From positions 1 through 61,736 of IMG/VR virus record IMGVR_UViG_2974716774_000001: a stretch of 61,736 bases of DNA. One strand, written 5' to 3'. Below the pieces are notes generated by a model that saw nothing but the letters and a program-made list of their open reading frames with translations, made no database searches and was not told the origin of the DNA. Positions 38,655-48,506 of this stretch are shown here, piece after piece. Position 1 is the first letter of the stretch, and each line of letters begins with the position of its first letter. This DNA is from Jacunavirus JC01. Its lineage: Duplodnaviria; Heunggongvirae; Uroviricota; Caudoviricetes; Casjensviridae. The position numbers were made by a program, and so were the translations under genes.

Positions 38655-40763
38655 ATGGCCGAAGCTATTAAGATGGCGGGCTACCGACTGGTAAGCCTGT
38701 CCTATAACGGCAAAACGCCGGACAAGCTGGGCGCGGCCACCGCAGGTACGCTATCCATCATCTACGTTGAGGCCGCGATAAACCGCGTCGCCTCTTTTCG
38801 TCTTACCGCCCTGAGCGCAGCTACCCGATCCCCTGACAGAATTGGTGCCGTGTCTGCGGCCACCACGGCCATGATTTACGTCGAAGCGCCGGTCAACCGC
38901 ATGGCCACGTATCGCCTGGTCGGCCTGAGTGCCACGACTCGCCAGCCGGACAAGCTGGCAGTGGCCACTGCAGGTCTCGTGGCGTTCCTGATCCGCCCGC
39001 CTTTCGGCAGCGCGCAGGCCGGGCGCTTCGGCTTCATCATCGAGCAGAAAGAGGTCGGGCCTCCGGCGTACGTGAAAGAGGCACAGCTGCTCGTTACCGC
39101 CGCGCGGCAGGTGCCGCCGGTAAGCCAGGTCATCTCGTACGAGAGCGTGCGCCAGACAGTGATGCTGACGTCCATGCTCTACGGCGCGATGCCGTTCCCG
39201 CTCTCCTACACTCGCGCGAAGCAGCTGCACCAGCTCGTGCTGCAGGCGAAGCCGATCAGCACTATCTCGTACGAGTCCGTGAAGCAGGTGCGCAACCTGG
39301 CGGCGACGCAGTTCAACTACATCATTCCGGGAGACGTCTGGTCGAAGAGCAGCGCCGCCCAGACCGTGATGCTGGTCTGTCAGTCGCTCACCATTCCGTA
39401 TACGCCGACGTCCGGCGAGTACCTCAGGCAGAACCTGATGCTGGTGGCGCTGCAAAGCGCGCCAATGCCCATCCGTATTTCCCGCGTTACCGTGCGGCAG
39501 GAGAGCGTGCTGGTGGCGCTGAAGCGTCCGCAGGAGAGACTGCCACGGTCGATTACCCGCGTGCCGCTGGTGACGACGCTGGCTTCGCAGAGACGCATCG
39601 ATCCGATGCCGCGCTCCGCCGAATTTGTGGGCGCCGTGCTTTCGCAGGCGTCAGTGCCCACGGTAATGCCGGAGCCGCACGGCCCTGACCACGTAGCGCA
39701 GCTGTATTCGCTGGCGCTGGTTCCGACCGTTATGCCCGCAGTCCAGGGCGTGCAGCAGGTTAAACAGGAGCGCGTGCTGGTGTCGCAGGCCCGCCCGGCG
39801 CCGCTACCGATTTCCCGCGAGGCTGTACCTCAGGTTACGCTGCTTGCCTCGCAGGGCACGTCATACCCGGCACCGGGATCCATGTCGAGCCTGCAGGTGA
39901 AACAGGAGCGCACGCTGGCGCTGGTGCAGTCGTCCTATCCGCCGCCGACCCGCATCTCCTATACCGCCGTGCCTCAGGTGGCCATTGCGTTCATGACCCA
40001 CCCTCCAGCGTCTTACTACCCCGACCCGGAAGTGGTGTACGAGCGCTCGCGCTATGACTTCGTGTCGCAGTTCGTCGAGCTGGTGACGATGGGTCGACCG
40101 TTGGCGCTGCCGCTGTCCTATGTGCCGGTGCCGCAGCTGGCCATGCTCACCGCGCAGCACGCGGACTACCTGTCGCCGGAAGAGATGGCTCGCTCCGGTG
40201 CCTTCACCTGGCAGGTCATCGAGAACGTCGCGACCACAGCGGACTACCCTTCCGCCGACGCACCGGCCAGCCGCGTTATCGTGCCGCAGCTCATCGAGCA
40301 CGTTGCGGTGACGGCCGACTACCCTGATGCCCATCTGCCGGTCAATTACGCGATTGTGACGCAGGTCGTGGAGCATACGGCCACGGTTGAGACTTATCCC
40401 GATCCGGGCACCCTTCAGTCAGTGCAGAATGTGTGGCAGGTATCCGAGCAGCTGGCGGTCGAAACTGATTACCCGGACGCTGGTGCGCTACACTCACCTG
40501 TGATAGCTTTGCAGCTTGTTGAGCAGGTCACTTCGTCGGCTAACTACCCGGACAAAGATTTCCCGCAGTCTTTCGTCCGGCTGGCTCAGGCGACACAGCA
40601 GGTGGCCTTCAAAGCAGCTTACCCTAACAAGGACGTTCCACAGTCCTCGGCTCGGGTAAATCAGGTGCTCCAGCATGTTGCCCGGCGCGACCTGACGATG
40701 TATCAGCTACCGGTACCGCCGCGGCGCCACAGAGTGCGGGTCGTGTGCCGATTCGTGTACTGA
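38655..40763 (+). CDS. Repeat-rich protein (putative tail fibre shaft)
   Basis: 702-aa ORF with three types of internal tandem peptide repeats (N-terminal about 38-aa units, central ISYESV-type units, C-terminal about 27-aa units ending in DYPD/TYPD/NYPD). Confidence 0.55.
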   Translation: MAEAIKMAGYRLVSLSYNGKTPDKLGAATAGTLSIIYVEAAINRVASFRLTALSAATRSPDRIGAVSAATTAMIYVEAPVNRMATYRLVGLSATTRQPDKLAVATAGLVAFLIRPPFGSAQAGRFGFIIEQKEVGPPAYVKEAQLLVTAARQVPPVSQVISYESVRQTVMLTSMLYGAMPFPLSYTRAKQLHQLVLQAKPISTISYESVKQVRNLAATQFNYIIPGDVWSKSSAAQTVMLVCQSLTIPYTPTSGEYLRQNLMLVALQSAPMPIRISRVTVRQESVLVALKRPQERLPRSITRVPLVTTLASQRRIDPMPRSAEFVGAVLSQASVPTVMPEPHGPDHVAQLYSLALVPTVMPAVQGVQQVKQERVLVSQARPAPLPISREAVPQVTLLASQGTSYPAPGSMSSLQVKQERTLALVQSSYPPPTRISYTAVPQVAIAFMTHPPASYYPDPEVVYERSRYDFVSQFVELVTMGRPLALPLSYVPVPQLAMLTAQHADYLSPEEMARSGAFTWQVIENVATTADYPSADAPASRVIVPQLIEHVAVTADYPDAHLPVNYAIVTQVVEHTATVETYPDPGTLQSVQNVWQVSEQLAVETDYPDAGALHSPVIALQLVEQVTSSANYPDKDFPQSFVRLAQATQQVAFKAAYPNKDVPQSSARVNQVLQHVARRDLTMYQLPVPPRRHRVRVVCRFVY

Positions 40764-42433: not shown

Positions 42434-42916
42434 TCAGCTGGCGTCAACACTCTCTTTCCTGAAGCACATCCAGTGGGTGTCGACACGTTTCCCTGACCGA
42501 TGGCCAAATAACGGAGCCGCATCCACGAGAGTGAGGATTTCGCGTACGCGGTGGCTGGTGTCGTTCCACTTGAAGATTAGCGTTCCACCCGGCCGGAGAA
42601 CGCGGAAGGCTTCGCTAAAACCTTTCCTCAGGTCTTCCCGCCAGGTGTCTTTGTTGAGCACGCCGTATTTGTGGCGCAGCAAGCTGCGCGGCCCAGCGCG
42701 GGATACGTGCGGTGGATCGAAAACGACCATCTCGAAAGTCTCATCGGCGAAAGGCAGCTGGCGGAAATCTGCCTGGACGTCAGGGCGAACTTCGATGGTT
42801 CGGTCGGTCATCTGAAAAGTGCCCACACGGATGTCGCAGAAAACAACGCGCGGGTCTTTCCTGTCGAACCAGAAAACTCGGCTGCCACAGCACATGTCAA
42901 GCACGGTTTTATCCAT
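42434..42916 (-). CDS. Small DNA methyltransferase (N6-adenine or N4-cytosine type)
   Basis: 160-aa ORF; DPPH motif (VVFDPPHV) and Gly-rich SAM-binding-like LDMCCGSRVF. Confidence 0.55.
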   Translation of the reverse strand: MDKTVLDMCCGSRVFWFDRKDPRVVFCDIRVGTFQMTDRTIEVRPDVQADFRQLPFADETFEMVVFDPPHVSRAGPRSLLRHKYGVLNKDTWREDLRKGFSEAFRVLRPGGTLIFKWNDTSHRVREILTLVDAAPLFGHRSGKRVDTHWMCFRKESVDAS

Positions 42917-43343
42917 CGAGGTTCGCTCCGTGCCACAGGGCGTTATCCGCGTCTCTCTTTTTCATCAGTGCCATCAGGCTATCGGTGTAGCCGCGGACGT
43001 CTATGAGCCCGCCAGCTAGTTTTTTGTTAAGCAGATCCAGCTCCTGCTGATAGGTCATGCAGTGGTCTCCAGGCATGAACAGCATGTGCTTTTTATCCGG
43101 CACGCCGCCGTGCGGCACCATCGCTTCCGAGGCACTGATGATAAGCGCCCGCGCGTGGAAGAACGGCCAGCGGCTGTCCTCAAAGTACATGGCCGGGATG
43201 CTGACGCTTTGGGTGTGAAAGACACCCATTTTGTCGCCTTTCCACTGCCACTGGATCTTCACTGACGAACCTGTGCGCTGGATGTCCACGCGCGCTGCCA
43301 TGTTGGCCGCGTTTGCATAATCGAGAAGTCGAGTCACGTTCAT
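42909..43343 (-). CDS. Hypothetical protein
   Basis: 144-aa ORF overlapping neighbours by 4-8 nt in the leftward operon. Confidence 0.45.
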   Translation of the reverse strand: MNVTRLLDYANAANMAARVDIQRTGSSVKIQWQWKGDKMGVFHTQSVSIPAMYFEDSRWPFFHARALIISASEAMVPHGGVPDKKHMLFMPGDHCMTYQQELDLLNKKLAGGLIDVRGYTDSLMALMKKRDADNALWHGANLDG

Positions 43344-43651
43344 GGCTGTTCACCTTTGCTGATGATTTCAAGGCCGTACTCGCGTATCGCCCGGATGAAC
43401 ACCTTATGCGGGATACGACGAGTGTTTTTGTGTTTCAGGCTGCGCGCCACCACTTCGCCCAGCTCCGGCGAATGGCTCACCACAACGGCACGGAACGCGG
43501 CATCCCGGCGAGGATAATCGTTCAGTATAAACTGGGTGCCGACAGGCAGCTGCGCTTTAAACTCGTTGGCCAGGTTAAGGGCTGCTACGCGCGCCGTGGC
43601 TTCTTTGACCAGCAGCGCGCGGCCGGTGGATGTGTTGGCTTTCACAATCAT
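43340..43651 (-). CDS. Hypothetical protein
   Basis: 103-aa ORF, 4-nt overlaps with both neighbours. Confidence 0.45.
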   Translation of the reverse strand: MIVKANTSTGRALLVKEATARVAALNLANEFKAQLPVGTQFILNDYPRRDAAFRAVVVSHSPELGEVVARSLKHKNTRRIPHKVFIRAIREYGLEIISKGEQP

Positions 43652-44025
43652 TTCAGTTCCTCCGCGATTTGTCTGGCGATGTGGTACAACGGGGCGACTT
43701 TGTTTGGAGCAATGCGCATTGCCGTTTCGAGGCAGCGCGGGATCGGGTCTTCACGACGCGCTTTGGGCCAGTACCACACGTATCCGTGAATGCGCGCTTC
43801 CCAGTAGCAATAGCGCAACGATTGGAGCTGGCTAATAATGCTGCTGTAAGACCGACCGAGCAGCAACGTCATGCGCTCAATGCTGTCGCCGCGCATCACA
43901 CACTTGATGAGGTATTCACGTTCGGCGTCGCTCCAGCGCGTCCGGGCACGCGGTGCAGGCCGTGGCGCGGTTAAGTAGACTGGCTCCAGCGGATAGTCAT
44001 CAAACAGTGAGTTTCTGGCTTTCAC
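43648..44025 (-). CDS. Hypothetical protein with possible HTH (candidate regulator)
   Basis: 125-aa ORF; segment WSDAEREYLIKCVMRGDSIERMTLLLGRSYSSIISQL looks helix-turn-helix-like. Confidence 0.4.
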   Translation of the reverse strand: MKARNSLFDDYPLEPVYLTAPRPAPRARTRWSDAEREYLIKCVMRGDSIERMTLLLGRSYSSIISQLQSLRYCYWEARIHGYVWYWPKARREDPIPRCLETAMRIAPNKVAPLYHIARQIAEELK

Positions 44026-44351
44026 TTCAGATCCTCCGCGGTGAGGTTAAAAGACTTTTTGCAAGACAGCGAGTACACAAGCTCGTCATGCCGCAAGGAT
44101 ACGGTAAGGCATCCCATGACCTCGGAACCGTTCATGACTACAGAGTATTTGGACTCAGCGCCGTTTTTCTCAAAAACGGTGTTAAAAGAAGCGCCGGGAT
44201 AAAGGCGGCGCGATTCTCTCATGACCTTAATCAAGATGTTCGATATTTTTCGGGCGTGCTGTTCACGGATGGCATCGGCAATGCTTTCTGCAAATGCGCC
44301 TACATCACCATCTTTCACTTCAAAGGAGAAACGTGGCGGGATGTTTTTCAT
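44022..44351 (-). CDS. Hypothetical protein
   Basis: 109-aa ORF directly downstream of a promoter. Confidence 0.45.
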   Translation of the reverse strand: MKNIPPRFSFEVKDGDVGAFAESIADAIREQHARKISNILIKVMRESRRLYPGASFNTVFEKNGAESKYSVVMNGSEVMGCLTVSLRHDELVYSLSCKKSFNLTAEDLK

Positions 44352-44385
44352 AAAAAATGCTCCGGTAGTGTGGGTCTACAGGAGC

Positions 44386-44414
44386 ATTATGATTATACAC
44401 TTCATGTGTGTCAA
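44386..44414 (-). promoter_or_regulatory. Sigma70-type promoter with embedded dyad (family member)
   Basis: Minus strand TTGACA-CACATGAAGTGTATAAT-CATAAT; 17-nt spacer contains ACAC-N5-GTGT. Confidence 0.45.
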
Positions 44415-44421
44415 ACAGTTT

Positions 44422-44631
44422 TTACTTGATTTTCGAAAAGTCCATTTTCTGCGCTTCACGCCAGGCCTGATTCTTTGCCTGTCGAACAGACATTCCGGTC
44501 GCACGTAATTCCTCCACGCGGGTCTTTTGCCAGTCGATGTAATGGTACTGCGCCCAGGCCGGTGTCCGGCGGGCTACTGCTTCAAGCCTCTCGACGCGCT
44601 CTTCAAGAGTACGGCCCATTGCTCTCTCCAC
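44422..44631 (-). CDS. Hypothetical protein
   Basis: 69-aa ORF, basic/acidic helical composition. Confidence 0.4.
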   Translation of the reverse strand: MERAMGRTLEERVERLEAVARRTPAWAQYHYIDWQKTRVEELRATGMSVRQAKNQAWREAQKMDFSKIK

Positions 44632-44948
44632 TATTTCTGTTTAGCCACCCAGTCCGCGTTAATTGAAAAGCGGACGAACCCTTCTTTGTCCGGCGCTGAG
44701 CCGACGTCTACGGCTCGCAGGCGTCGCCACCCAAGATATTTCGCCGGAACGAAATGCGTATTAAAGCCGGGAAGCAGGTGCATGTAGTAATGCACGGGCT
44801 TAAACGGCACTTCGAGCACCGGCATGTCGTGATACGACATCTCCCGGTATGCCCGCTTCGCCTCTTTGTAGGCAAGAGCGAACAACATGTGGCGACGCTT
44901 GAGCTGTTCCACGTAGTTAAACCGTCTTATCTGAGCTGCGCTAAACAT
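44631..44948 (-). CDS. Hypothetical protein
   Basis: 105-aa ORF downstream of a family promoter. Confidence 0.45.
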   Translation of the reverse strand: MFSAAQIRRFNYVEQLKRRHMLFALAYKEAKRAYREMSYHDMPVLEVPFKPVHYYMHLLPGFNTHFVPAKYLGWRRLRAVDVGSAPDKEGFVRFSINADWVAKQK

Positions 44949-44982
44949 AAAAATCCCCTCGTTGGATTAACCTTCAAGGGGA

Positions 44983-45011
44983 ATATAGATTACACACTAG
45001 AGGTGTGTCAA
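44983..45011 (-). promoter_or_regulatory. Sigma70-type promoter with embedded dyad (family member)
   Basis: Minus strand TTGACA-CACCTCTAGTGTGTAAT-CTATAT. Confidence 0.45.
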
Positions 45012-45217
45012 CGACTTTCTCGGCTGTTCCACGGCTGCGAGATGTCAGAGTCAACAACGCATCCGGTAAACGGCGCCCAGGACGTGCGGGTCTGCTGGTT
45101 GATGCCTGTGGTAGTGCAGATTGAGGACGATACTGCCGACCACAGATAGAACACAAAGAGAACCGCGAGAACGATAGTCACTGCAGCGCCAACGCCTTTG
45201 GTATGATTGATTACCAT
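45008..45217 (-). CDS. Small membrane protein (putative)
   Basis: About 69 aa from the ATG at 45217 preceded by RBS GGAGG; one hydrophobic helix AAVTIVLAVLFVFYLW. Confidence 0.35.
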   Translation of the reverse strand: MVINHTKGVGAAVTIVLAVLFVFYLWSAVSSSICTTTGINQQTRTSWAPFTGCVVDSDISQPWNSRESR

Positions 45218-45313
45218 AGCTGGCCTCCGTCTGGTTTGGTGTATCACCGCTTTCAAAATACCAGAGCGCCACTGCCTTCCTCTTCAGATTAGTCTGCTTA
45301 ATGTAAATCTGCT

Positions 45314-46021
45314 TTACAGATCCTCCCACCTTCTGAACCACGCTTCCCGATCGAAATGCTTCTTCGCCGCCAGTGGCATCCCGATCTCCATCAGCTCTTC
45401 CCGGCGGACGTACTCTTCTGGCGCGCGGCTGGTGCTGAGGCCATCGAAGATAATCAGCGACGCGCCGAAGCCTGCGGTAGAGGCATCAGAAGACATGGCG
45501 TCTGGTCTGTACCAGCGAGGCAGGTCGAAAGCGATACGCCCTTTGATGTGGATAATCTTCGAGCATTCGCCGTCCGGCCACCAGCTCTCCGACGTCGCCG
45601 ACTTCACCAGCCAGAAAGATGGCGTGCCTTTCCGGTGCTCTTCGTACGCCTTCTTCATGATGTGCTGCATACCGGTGACGTGGGGCGCCCGACGGCCGCG
45701 CCCGGCGCGCTTGATGCTGTAAGGTGGATTGCCGAAGCATTTGACCGGCTCAGCGTCATCCGCACCCGCCAGCTCGGCACCTTTGCGCAGCGCTGCGCTC
45801 CAGTCCTGCGTCAGCGCGTTATCATCTGCCGTGAAGAACACCGGGCACTTCGCATTGGGGCCGTCACTGAACAGGTCGACGACGAACGGGCCATACAGCT
45901 CATCCAGCGCCAGGTAGAGCCAGTCCGGCGTACACCACTGGTCGCCTATCTCGTTCGGCAGGTGGGTCTGCTGGGCCTGCAGTTGCTGCAGAGCACGCAC
46001 GTACTCATTGCTCATCGGCAT
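45314..46021 (-). CDS. DNA N6-adenine methyltransferase (phage Dam-like)
   Basis: 235-aa ORF; NPPY catalytic motif (CFGNPPYS) and W-C-T-P-D-W segment. Confidence 0.65.
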   Translation of the reverse strand: MPMSNEYVRALQQLQAQQTHLPNEIGDQWCTPDWLYLALDELYGPFVVDLFSDGPNAKCPVFFTADDNALTQDWSAALRKGAELAGADDAEPVKCFGNPPYSIKRAGRGRRAPHVTGMQHIMKKAYEEHRKGTPSFWLVKSATSESWWPDGECSKIIHIKGRIAFDLPRWYRPDAMSSDASTAGFGASLIIFDGLSTSRAPEEYVRREELMEIGMPLAAKKHFDREAWFRRWEDL

Positions 46022-46490
46022 CCCCTTTGAGATACGGCGGGATGAATCCGTGTACCTGGTCTCCCTCGCGCAGCAGGCGGATCATCATTGCAAGCACGTC
46101 AACCATTTCCGACTCAACCCGGTGCCAGCTGCCTCGTCCTTCGAGATAATGGACGCATTCCTTTGTGACCTCGCCAGCCTCTTCCCCGAATTTGGTCAGC
46201 ACATAGTTGGGCTGGGGGAATTTCTGCATGGCTGCCTCAGCGCGCTCCATCGCGTCGTCCACCAGCTTGAGGAAGAGCTGCTGGCCTCTGTCCTTGTTGC
46301 TGGACAGCGCATGGAACTCATCGGTGTGGATGAAATAGTGCTTGATGGTTCCCGCGATATTAGGCGTGTGACGGCTGGTGTCGTGTCCAGCGTGGAAAGC
46401 CCAGCTGAAAAAGTCCAGCATCTGCTCGGTGGTAAAAGTCAGCGTCTTGCCTTTCTGCTCGCTGATAATTTCGTCAAATGTCTTGCTCAT
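46005..46490 (-). CDS. MazG-like nucleotide pyrophosphohydrolase (putative)
   Basis: About 161 aa; acidic motif pattern FGEEAGEVTKE...ESEMVDVLAMM resembles the EExxE...E..D metal-binding signature. Confidence 0.4.
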   Translation of the reverse strand: MSKTFDEIISEQKGKTLTFTTEQMLDFFSWAFHAGHDTSRHTPNIAGTIKHYFIHTDEFHALSSNKDRGQQLFLKLVDDAMERAEAAMQKFPQPNYVLTKFGEEAGEVTKECVHYLEGRGSWHRVESEMVDVLAMMIRLLREGDQVHGFIPPYLKGDADEQ

Positions 46491-46864
46491 TTGTATCCCC
46501 ATGATTTAACAATGTGAATCACCCGGCGGCACTGCTTGATGCTGAAGTGTCCAATGTGGCAGCGGCCCACGGAAATGCGCATGGCGCGGGCCAGCATCCT
46601 GTATGCAACGTCGCGGGAGTGCCTGCCATTGCGCCACACCTGGTCGAACAGGCGGTGCGCTTCGCTCCTGACGGCGCGCAGGTTTTTATTGGCCAGCGTT
46701 CCCATTGGGGCTTCTGTTCCCCTGTGGCAGCCGACATAGGCGTCACATGGCACGCAACGCCAGAACTTCTTGTCGGCGAGGTCTTCGCGGTGCGGATACA
46801 GGTCTGTGCCGCTGGCCAGCTCCGCAGGTTTTCCGCAGTATGTACATTTAACTTGAGATGGCAT
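46487..46864 (-). CDS. Zinc-finger protein (phage-associated CxxC...CxxC)
   Basis: 125-aa ORF; Cys pairs CTYCGKP and CVPCDAYVGCH. Confidence 0.45.
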   Translation of the reverse strand: MPSQVKCTYCGKPAELASGTDLYPHREDLADKKFWRCVPCDAYVGCHRGTEAPMGTLANKNLRAVRSEAHRLFDQVWRNGRHSRDVAYRMLARAMRISVGRCHIGHFSIKQCRRVIHIVKSWGYK

Positions 46865-46890
46865 TAAACTGCTCCCATGCTAATCGGTTT

Positions 46891-47931
46891 CTATAAATCG
46901 CTTCGTTCAGTCTCATAAGCTGCGATAACAGTTGCGCTGACGAACCGGGCAGCGATTTGAGGTACGATGGCGTTACCATATCCTTTGAGTAGCCCCACGC
47001 GGCCGGGTACCCCATGAGCCAGCGGGAATGTTCCGGGTTCAACGGGCCTGAAGCATCCATCCCGGCAGAAGAGCCAGTCAGCACTTCCCCAGTCTCCGTG
47101 ATCCGCACTGGGCAATCCGGCATAACCAGCTGCGCGGCAACGTCCAGTCTGTCCACTGACAGTTTGCCGTTGCGTATCCGTCCTCCCTGATAGCCGCCCT
47201 TGTGATCCGTCGCGCTCGATGTTGGCCATATCGCCAGCTTCGCCTCCCCGCCCAGCTTCAGGATTTTCCGGCCCGCCGATGTGCTGTAGTCGCTGCCCTT
47301 CGCATCGTTCGCTATCGCCGTATGCCAGCTGGTCATCTTCGCCTGCTGCGCCAGCGAGCTGCCCGTCATGTTGGCCGTGATGCCCGACCAACCGCGCCGC
47401 CCGTCCGAGTGACTCGGTGTCGTCCAGGCGAAAGGCCGCGAAAAATAATCGGTCGCGTTTGTGCGGAGCGCCGACGCCTGCAGCTGGCAGTACATGCGCT
47501 GCGCAGGCGTAACCTTCCTCTTCCAGCTCAATGAGTAAAGCGTCAAGCCAGTGGTCTTTTTTAACTGCCGCTGCAACCTGCTCGCCGAAGAGCATTGGAG
47601 GACGACACTCTGCGATGAGATCGAGAAGGGCCGGAGCCAAGTGACGTGAATCTCTTGCCCCGAGGCCTGCTCCAGCCACGCTGAAAGGCTGGCACGGAGG
47701 ACTACCCGTCCACAGCGGGAGATCGTCCGGGAGCCCGGCGAGTCGCAGGGCAAGCGGCCATCCGGCGATGCCTGCGAAGAAGTGGCACTGGGTGAAGCCA
47801 CGGAGGTCTTGTGGTCTGACATCTAAAATGCTCCGCGTGTCTACGATGCCCATCGGGATAAGCCCGGCGTCAATGAGAAGCCGCAGCCTTTCAGCTGCGA
47901 CCGGATCGTACTCGTTATAGTAATTCATCAC
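46891..47931 (-). CDS. DNA cytosine-5 methyltransferase, reading frame apparently interrupted by two frameshifts
   Basis: Frame A (46891-47931) carries motif I (FFAGIAGW), motif IV (GSPPCQPFSVAG), motif VIII (HKRDRLFF) and C-terminal motif X (GNAIVPQIAARF); the target-recognition region and motif IX (RWLMGYP) are in the overlapping +1 frame (ORF 46848-47822). Confidence 0.55.
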   Translation of the reverse strand: MMNYYNEYDPVAAERLRLLIDAGLIPMGIVDTRSILDVRPQDLRGFTQCHFFAGIAGWPLALRLAGLPDDLPLWTGSPPCQPFSVAGAGLGARDSRHLAPALLDLIAECRPPMLFGEQVAAAVKKDHWLDALLIELEEEGYACAAHVLPAAGVGAPHKRDRLFFAAFRLDDTESLGRAARLVGHHGQHDGQLAGAAGEDDQLAYGDSERCEGQRLQHIGGPENPEAGRGGEAGDMANIERDGSQGRLSGRTDTQRQTVSGQTGRCRAAGYAGLPSADHGDWGSADWLFCRDGCFRPVEPGTFPLAHGVPGRVGLLKGYGNAIVPQIAARFVSATVIAAYETERSDL

Positions 47932-48506
47932 AGACGCCAGGAAGCCGGTGATACGACGTTAAGCCGAGATGTGTTTTTGGCGATGCGCAGGGTCAGCGGA
48001 TTGGCCTCGCAGTAGGAGCTGAGGCCGCGCGCATATTGATCCATTGCACCGATGCGGCGGATTTCGAGGTCGGCGCGCTTCGTCATCGCCTCGACATACC
48101 GGCGGGCGCTGTTTTTGTCCGGCGCATAGACCAGCATCGCGCGTTGCATCGTCTCGTCATTGACGACGAACGCTTGCAAAATCCCGCTCAGTGGCGGTGT
48201 GGGCCAGGCACCACTGGCGACGTGGGCGAGCACCCGATTCTCAAGCTCATCATATGCCTGGGCGACCAATGGGGCGTTGCCGACTACTTTCTCCCGTATC
48301 CGATTAACTTCTTCCTGCACGCGATTTGAACGCGGAATTATTCGGTGCATCGGGAGGCCGCTGGAAAGATGCGGGCGGGAAACGCCTTTTCTTGCGGTCG
48401 GCGAGCACTCAGGCGGGTCTTTATCGTCCACAGCCCATGTTTTACCGCATACCTTGCATGAATATTCGTCGTTCATGCGTACGACGTCTTTATGCTCAAG
48501 AGACAT
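47928..48506 (-). CDS. Hypothetical protein with N-terminal zinc-ribbon-like CxxC
   Basis: 192-aa ORF; CKVCGK ... ECSP near the N-terminus; 4-nt overlap with the methyltransferase start. Confidence 0.45.
   Translation of the reverse strand: MSLEHKDVVRMNDEYSCKVCGKTWAVDDKDPPECSPTARKGVSRPHLSSGLPMHRIIPRSNRVQEEVNRIREKVVGNAPLVAQAYDELENRVLAHVASGAWPTPPLSGILQAFVVNDETMQRAMLVYAPDKNSARRYVEAMTKRADLEIRRIGAMDQYARGLSSYCEANPLTLRIAKNTSRLNVVSPASWRL

Follow-up and report, generated by a model that had tools for sequence, protein, structure and literature searches.

Two overlapping frames in the C5-cytosine methyltransferase gene of Cronobacter phage JC01: a candidate two-chain enzyme encoded in one stretch of DNA

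The C5-cytosine methyltransferase locus of JC01 contains two long open frames

The DNA analyzed here, referred to as the window, is a stretch of 61,736 nucleotides (nt) from Cronobacter phage JC01, a Chi-like siphophage, and the element under study is its C5-cytosine methyltransferase locus, located on the minus strand between positions 46848 and 47931. The locus contains two long open reading frames (ORFs) on the same strand: frame A, which carries the catalytic motifs of a C5-cytosine methyltransferase, and frame B, nested in the +1 frame relative to A. Both frames are kept open and are under purifying selection at protein level, in complementary segments plus two dual-coded stretches, throughout a very large family of phages and prophages. 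The explanation we favor, which we consider fairly probable for JC01, is that one stretch of DNA is read in two frames to give two polypeptides of a single enzyme. An earlier note on this DNA had treated the C5 enzyme as an ordinary single chain and did not report the second long ORF (46848-47822); however, the frame-A product has no conserved target-recognition region, and information of this kind sits in the overlapping +1 frame.

Two samples of related loci were compared. The first contains 80 IMG/VR loci found through frame-B peptides and the Rhodobacter phage RcPescado, which makes 81 relatives, plus JC01. The second contains 78 analyzable loci chosen only through the frame-A catalytic core, in order to counter the ascertainment bias that comes from selection by frame B.

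Frame A encodes the catalytic chain

Frame A (46891..47931, minus strand) has 346 codons counted from a GTG at 47931. The ATG at 47928 is likely to be its real start, with a product of 345 residues. This ATG overlaps the TGA of the upstream gene (47928-48506) in the sequence TGATG, an overlap which suggests translational coupling of frame A to that gene. The frame-A protein matches PF00145 with 71.5 bits (cut-off 22), in residues 68-172 alone, and phrog_363 over its full length (E 2e-72); its score for TIGR00675 (49.4 bits) is under the cut-off of 100.65.

Residues 1-166 (A1-166; 47434..47931) make up the catalytic core, with a II/III-like N-terminus, motif I (FFAGIAGW), motif IV (PPCQPFS), motif VI (GEQV) and motif VIII (HKRDR), so that C5 motifs I, IV, VI and VIII are all found in the frame-A chain. 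Residues C80, E117, Q118, R159 and R161 are invariant or nearly so across the 81 relatives. The fold predicted for the core by AlphaFold2 (AF2), with a predicted local distance difference test score (pLDDT) of about 90, is that of a C5 methyltransferase, and Foldseek, which recovered the C5 core and no other part, places it with M.HhaI, DNMT2 and DNMT1. The motif order is non-canonical, with PCQ only about 22 residues after motif I. HMMER aligns A36-66 to HhaI 2-32 and A67-168 to HhaI 69-172, skipping HhaI 33-68, and in this C5 family a II/III-like beta-alpha-beta unit (YYNE.D..AA.WL...G.I..G.VD.RSI.DV) precedes motif I (CHFFAGIGGW), at window positions 47826-47931 (A1-35) and 47757-47781, respectively. 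The position of this unit, together with the skipped HhaI residues, suggests a permuted Rossmann-fold order.

The core is followed by a linker (A167-280; 47092..47433) rich in Gly, Arg, Glu and Asp, which is stop-free and unconserved as protein and forms the 'shadow' of frame B. Its amino acid identity ranges between 0.1 and 0.26, the sequence is of low complexity, and no conserved target-recognition region is present between motifs VIII and IX. The C-terminal segment (A281-335; 46927..47091) has the sequence W..DWLFCRDG..RPVEPGTFPL..G.P.RVG.LKGYGNAIVPQ, in which an IX-like element precedes motif X. In motif X (GYGNAIVPQ), G319 and N320 are 97% conserved with free third codon positions, and its helix is predicted with a pLDDT of 78-94.

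Frame B is a nested ORF with its own start signals

Frame B (46848..47822, minus strand) has 324 codons from the ATG at 47822 to the stop at 46848-46850. Its product is 100% identical to P0001, which is named 'hypothetical protein [Cronobacter phage JC01]', and 1241 homologues were found, almost all of them without any Pfam domain. The product matches phrog_1008 (E 3e-25) and phrog_31772 (E 1e-37); both families, as well as phrog_363, are labelled DNA methyltransferase.

Four segments follow one another in the frame-B chain. The leader (B1-68; 47619..47822) has a sequence dictated by frame A and is unconserved as protein, although it is kept open. A conserved helix and beta-hairpin (B69-122; 47457..47618; ..L..SS...L....G.TLYSLSWK..VTP.......L.AS..RT) is dual-coded with frame-A motifs VI-VIII, and AF2 predicts a confident helix and hairpin for B70-118 (pLDDT 77-91). 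Next come three W-x-T-P-x-x-x-D modules (B133-240; 47103..47426), in which the W, T, P and D are conserved. The number of modules ranges from one to about nine among the relatives, and from their sequence they are read here as a putative target-recognition array. The last conserved segment (B241-277; 46992..47102; R.T..G..LTGS.AGM..SG.LNPEHSRWLMGYPAAW) is dual-coded with A281-312 and resembles motif IX. For LNPEHSRWLMGYPAAW the resemblance was seen by eye, and no significant match to Pfam or PDB was obtained. Residues L261, P263, W268, L269 and W276 of frame B are invariant and M270 is nearly so (ATG in 80 of the 81 relatives).

A 102-nt island in this part of the locus (46991-47092) is 92% identical to 22 Rhodobacter phages which show no other DNA-level similarity to JC01, and it coincides with the second zone that is dual-coded. 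In RcPescado, one of these 22 phages, the methylase gene contains the same second ORF with the same motifs.

The core of a Shine-Dalgarno (SD) sequence, GGAG, is located 8 nt upstream of the frame-B ATG (47831..47834) and arises from the frame-A codons CGG AGC (Arg-Ser). A frame-B ATG is found within a 45-nt window near A27-41 in 80 of 81 loci, and an ATG with an SD core 5-15 nt upstream in 56 of 81, about four times the 14.1 expected from redrawing the codons of an unchanged frame-A protein. One locus, L102, has no frame-B leader; translation of its frame B would begin at a separate ATG, about 12 codons ahead of B69, the first residue of the conserved part.

Both frames are open and constrained across the family

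Comparison by tblastn gave one full-length high-scoring segment pair per frame in nearly every locus of the first sample, and B was always A+1. Neither frame A nor frame B contains a stop anywhere within the gene, in JC01 or in any of the 81 relatives, while the third frame contains about 9-30 stops. Among the 78 core-selected loci, a +1 ORF of frame-B type occurs in essentially all; the exceptions are two indel variants and the late-starting L102.

Synonymous codon permutation within the gene predicts 3.5 stops in frame B when frame A is fixed and 7.7 stops in frame A when frame B is fixed. When the codons of the module region were redrawn from the usage of flanking genes and the frame-B protein was kept, 4.5 frame-A stops per locus were expected, so that 1.3 of 81 loci would be open; all 81 are. 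The same procedure applied to the frame-B leader, with the frame-A protein kept, gave 0.76 expected frame-B stops per locus and 40 of 81 loci open, and again the 81 are open. These shuffles and the resampling rule out openness from base composition alone. A sequencing error or a pseudogene in JC01 was also ruled out, since the layout is found as well in RcPescado, in 21 further Rhodobacter phages, in 80 IMG/VR loci and in the 78 core-chosen loci.

Selection was followed on protein-guided codon alignments, using pairs with less than 65% identity and JC01 numbering. Residues A1-105 show the pattern of an ordinary gene, with third codon positions differing in 0.46-0.66 of pairs, and opposite to them the second codon position of frame B is the most variable (about 0.55). 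The first dual zone (A105-158/B69-122) is constrained in both frames, and motif VIII (A159-166) shows frame-A-only coding. From the first W-x-T-P (B133) to about B240 the pattern is that of frame-B coding, whose third positions are the most variable, and frame A is unalignable. The second dual zone (A281-312/B245-276) is again constrained in both frames, and motif X (A313-335) returns to frame-A-only coding.

Codon tables show protein-level constraint in each frame. In frame A, Arg159, 161, 290, 295 and 311 are kept through CGN and AGR codons (R159 and R161 through all six Arg codons), and Leu304 is kept through CTG and TTG. Other frame-A synonymous sites are frozen to rare codons: P111 is CCT in 77 of 81 loci, V119 is GTT in 76, A142 is GCC in 75 and V297 is GTT in 80, and this freezing yields Leu or Pro in frame B. 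Furthermore, opposite A136, which can be Leu, Met or Val (xTG), Trp100 of frame B is fixed (TGG in 80 of 81), and opposite A306, which can be Asp, His, Asn or Tyr (xAT), Met270 of frame B is fixed. In frame B, Ser266 is kept through TCC and AGC, and Leu269 through CTN and TTR.

Natural variants carry frame-specific insertions and fusions

Several natural loci show insertions or fusions which belong to one of the frames. HNH-endonuclease-like inserts are found in frame B of L021 (2278-3768) and P0050, where one insertion site separates the helix from the hairpin region and the other follows WLMGYPEEW. Frame A of L021 has no stop within the insert and reads through it as low-complexity sequence. 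Such inserts may be mobile homing endonucleases constrained to leave both frames intact. In L004 (2968-4437) and P0021 the frame-B ORF has no stop and runs in frame into the downstream Dam PF05869, and in L007 (2971-5298) it runs, also without a stop, into a downstream DUF2800/PD-(D/E)XK nuclease. Conversely, L014, L040 and L063 carry a helical domain of about 150 residues inserted in frame A only, between RPVE and FP..G.P.RVGRLRAYGNAIVPQ, downstream of the frame-B stop. At sequence level, these frame-specific insertions and fusions argue that both frames are read.

A two-chain enzyme as the favored explanation

In the arrangement that we propose, translation of frame A from 47928/47931 would give a chain with the catalytic core (motifs I, IV, VI and VIII), an unconstrained linker of about 110 residues and a C-terminal segment ending in motif X (GNAIVPQ). 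Frame B would be translated from its own SD and the ATG at 47822 inside gene A, giving a dispensable leader and a docking-like helix-hairpin, and would continue with the W-x-T-P module array and the motif-IX-like element LNPxHSRWLMGxPxxW. The two chains could then assemble into an active enzyme, in which A would supply binding of S-adenosylmethionine (AdoMet) and catalysis, and B the small, target-recognizing domain. For the very large phage and prophage family as a whole (phrog_363 with phrog_1008 and phrog_31772), we lean towards a conserved same-strand dual-coding gene with an overlap of about 0.7-1.5 kb, whose chains would assemble after translation and would each include a long unconstrained 'shadow'.

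Several observations weigh against this explanation. Frame B gave no significant match to motif IX or to a target-recognition domain (TRD), either against Pfam by sequence and profile or against PDB sequences by profile, so that its description as 'TRD plus motif IX' is one of resemblance. The confidence of AF2, with alignments of 30 sequences, was low for the W-x-T-P modules and for A281-312. A two-chain enzyme also gives no reason for translating the 68-codon leader and the linker of about 110 codons. About 5% of the cluster representatives are single ORFs which switch from A to B, and one of these loci, L085 (1155-2272), was found in three contigs from two sources (the European Nucleotide Archive, ENA, and the Joint Genome Institute, JGI). 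Finally, a splice of A1-168, B133-276 and A313-346 restores exactly the canonical order of motifs I-VIII, TRD, IX and X, which favors a frameshifted chain or an ancestor of that kind.

Alternative explanations

Frame B could instead be a genuine protein with an unrelated function, for example a DNA-binding or anti-defense factor, overprinted on a self-sufficient frame-A methyltransferase. We regard this as unlikely, although frame B resembles no methyltransferase domain with statistical support, is found fused both to Dam and to a PD-(D/E)XK nuclease, and leaves to frame A an IX-like element of its own (FPL..G.P.RVG) at canonical spacing from motif X. A self-sufficient frame A would be expected to hold its recognition domain between motifs VIII and IX, where it has no conserved region, and an ORF of frame-B type accompanies frame A in essentially all of the approximately 160 loci examined. 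In addition, actinophages have single-frame methyltransferases in which WPTP modules and LNP..W.MG.P.GW occupy the region from motif VIII to motif X.

The spliced order described above would be produced in a single chain by two programmed frameshifts, with A1-168 passing by +1 into the frame-B modules and motif IX and then by -1 back to frame-A motif X; we consider this quite unlikely. The hand-over points are sharp, given that frame-A conservation ends at A166 with W133 of frame B 7 nt further on, and that W276 of frame B abuts G313 of frame A. However, no conserved slippery sequence is found at either junction, and junction 1 varies freely (FR|W, AL|W, YW|W and others). At junction 2, the sole junction folded, RNAalifold with 19 sequences showed no conserved RNA structure (-6.06 kcal/mol, covariation term -0.19). 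Nor does the zero frame end after the shift, as frame A remains open for 60-164 further codons in all 81 loci. Two frameshifts would leave unexplained the selection on B69-122 and A281-312, as well as the internal SD and ATG and the stop-free frame-A linker and frame-B leader.

Natural ORFs in which the frame-A core continues into the frame-B modules do exist (P0178/L085 and P0241/L084), and P0187 switches from A to B to A. The first recognition module of L084 and L085 contains an indel of one-nucleotide type, which fuses core to modules; their helix-hairpin ORF is cut short, and motif X is left in a third ORF with no obvious start codon. The switches in natural A-to-B fusions are located at scattered positions and look mutational. 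In an exhaustive phmmer search with the spliced chimera, aimed at single-frame relatives, most of the 'single-stretch' matches were ORFs that either were of frame-A type or contained scattered indels, and they did not form a clean in-frame subfamily. Modeling with AF2 gave the chimera no advantage over a linked three-segment construct (mean pLDDT 69 vs 62), with the modules low in both.

The last alternative, that frame A is the sole gene and frame B a shadow ORF held open by G+C content and frame-A conservation, with its 'family' an artefact of gene callers, is very improbable and, in its pure form, essentially excluded: long spurious ORFs are common in genomes as G+C-rich as these (52-70%), and the N-terminal third of frame B indeed shadows frame A, but the module region is conserved in frame B and not in frame A, frame-A synonymous sites are frozen to rare codons serving frame B, Ser and Leu codon-family switches preserve frame-B residues, the third frame has its 9-30 or so stops while A and B have none, HNH and Dam domains occur in frame B, and the SD with ATG is enriched fourfold.

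Comparison with known methyltransferases and overlapping genes

The closest parallel to the two-chain enzyme proposed for JC01 is M.EcoHK31I of E. coli HK31 (YGGCCR), a natural heterodimeric C5 methyltransferase that needs both its alpha and beta chains (PMC2836561; PMC3404938). Its beta chain lies wholly in another frame inside alpha, with the first 42 residues dispensable, and alpha contains motifs I-VIII, X and the TRD while beta contains motif IX (PMC2836561; PMC3404938, citing Lee et al. 1995). As in M.EcoHK31I, the second chain of JC01 is in another frame inside the first gene and the large chain carries motifs I-VIII and X. Unlike M.EcoHK31I, whose alpha chain holds the TRD and whose beta chain holds motif IX alone, the nested frame B of JC01 carries all the conserved modules; it is nearly of host-gene length (324 of 346 codons), and the frame-A stretch opposite to the modules is unconserved filler. 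The JC01 gene is well supported as a widely conserved two-frame gene, and it would represent a new and much more extensive variant of the M.EcoHK31I principle. Common descent with M.EcoHK31I is doubtful because of the unusual motif order of the JC01 core.

Other C5 enzymes can also be divided: the two-subunit M.AquI and fragments of M.HhaI, M.BspRI, M.BsuRI and M.SssI show that parts separated between motif VIII and the recognition domain can come together again as an active enzyme (PMC3404938). None of these pairs a chain with core and motif X with a chain with TRD and motif IX, the pairing proposed for JC01. In the multispecific orphan C5 methyltransferases of Bacillus phages (SPR, phi3T and rho11s types), short consecutive recognition modules, variable in number, lie between motifs VIII and IX. 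Their modules, however, share both frame and chain with the core and show no sequence relation to the W-x-T-P modules.

Same-strand genes embedded out of frame with their own starts are classical in phages, as in phiX174, where B lies in A and E in D. To our knowledge these classical overlaps, including that of lambda Rz1 and Rz, extend over a few hundred nucleotides at most. Rz1 is likewise embedded in Rz on the same strand, out of frame and with its own start (PMC9409062). The classical overlaps pair unrelated functions, whereas the JC01 overlap covers about 930-975 nt and its products appear to be parts of one enzyme.

Distribution and annotation of the two-frame gene

Frame B was detected by tblastn in at least 227 deposited phage genomes with Escherichia, Klebsiella, Rhodobacter, Salmonella, Burkholderia, Xanthomonas, Pseudomonas and other hosts, and in these genomes it always lies under a feature called cytosine or DNA methyltransferase. 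The family is also found in thousands of metagenomic clusters. Annotation treats the gene in different ways. The record of phage K1ind1 annotates both overlapping ORFs as DNA methyltransferases, and PHROGs files frames A and B as separate families. In the L082 prophage of E. coli (1454-2656, NZ_CP041110), the Prokaryotic Genome Annotation Pipeline (PGAP) of RefSeq splits an intact frame-A ORF of 400 codons, inside which lies an intact frame-B ORF of 334 codons, into two 'incomplete' cytosine methyltransferase pseudogenes. A gene for an MT-A70 family methyltransferase is located immediately upstream of the C5 gene in L082 and L085. In the literature collection that was searched, no paper was found that describes the two-frame arrangement in phages. 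The published description of JC01, which calls the phage Chi-like, lists just 'DNA methyltransferase' (PMC9759504). The closest deposited relative, Salmonella phage BAU.Micro_SLP-22 (about 75% identity over 47% of the first 25 kb), has in common with JC01 at least the two-frame C5 gene and the small methyltransferase described below (83% identity).

Neighboring genes of the same arm

The earlier note had reported three methyltransferase genes of different classes in one arm, and all three are present on the minus strand in three different families, which hidden Markov models confirmed. The small class-I methyltransferase dependent on S-adenosylmethionine (42434..42916, 160 aa) has the DPPH motif in the sequence VVFDPPH; it matches Pfam Methyltransf_25 (E 2.4e-8, 35 bits, cut-off 27) and Methyltransf_11, as well as phrog_954, 'DNA methyltransferase' (E 6e-73). 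Its relatives occur in 250 deposited phage genomes from Gram-positive and Gram-negative hosts, no relative with a solved structure was found, and DNA is assumed to be its substrate from annotation. The second enzyme (45314..46021, 235 aa, GNPPYS) is a phage Dam-type N6-adenine methyltransferase, which passes the cut-offs of Pfam Dam PF05869 (105.3 bits, cut-off 28.1) and NCBIfam TIGR01712 (116.4 bits, cut-off 97.05) and belongs to phrog_111. The C5 gene is the third.

Between them, a MazG-like gene and two zinc-finger proteins had been proposed. The first ORF exists (46005..46502, minus strand, 165 aa), and homologues of its C-terminal half carry the JGI names 'phosphoribosyl-ATP pyrophosphohydrolase' or 'NTP pyrophosphatase', which would correspond to a MazG-like nucleoside triphosphate (NTP) pyrophosphohydrolase domain. 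These names are what speaks for a MazG assignment, which is weak: no match to Pfam, NCBIfam or PDB was obtained even at E 10, and no MazG-type profile was matched. One zinc-finger protein was borne out, a DUF3268 zinc-finger-containing protein (46487..46864, minus strand; PF11672, E 2e-37; phrog_1934). The frame-B tail reaches 43 nt beyond the frame-A stop and overlaps the start of this gene by 17 nt (46848-46864). The other candidate, a Cys-bearing ORF (47928-48506), lies upstream of the C5 gene, outside the interval; it belongs to phrog_8641, of unknown function, and has no support from a zinc-finger family.

Just upstream of the lysis and accessory arm, an ORF of 702 aa (38655-40763) shows many degenerate repeats of about 30-35 residues (..YP[DN].....S...V.Q...) and is probably a Chi-type tail fiber.

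Three methyltransferases in one arm are ordinary for a virulent phage. Self-methylation against host restriction, as the earlier note suggested, is the conventional reading for orphan phage methyltransferases and is plausible here. The C5 enzyme, together with the Dam-type and small methyltransferases of the same arm, would methylate the phage DNA and protect it from host restriction.

Implications

The two-frame C5 gene of JC01 is worth experimental follow-up. The locus is a deeply sampled test case for overlapping genes, with an overlap of about 1 kb, thousands of divergent copies and separable segments that are single-coded, dual-coded or kept open. A detachable modular recognition chain could help to build split methyltransferases, as tried with M.EcoHK31I. 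If the arrangement proposed here is true, current annotation is systematically wrong, presenting the gene as a single ORF, as two pseudogene fragments or as an unexplained 'hypothetical protein', and predictions of methylomes and restriction evasion would be affected, with specificity located in a chain that nobody annotates as part of an enzyme. Few of the out-of-frame overlaps known from bacterial viruses would then equal this one in length and breadth of conservation. Translation of both frames would make one of the commonest orphan methyltransferase families of proteobacterial phages a two-chain enzyme hidden in one gene.

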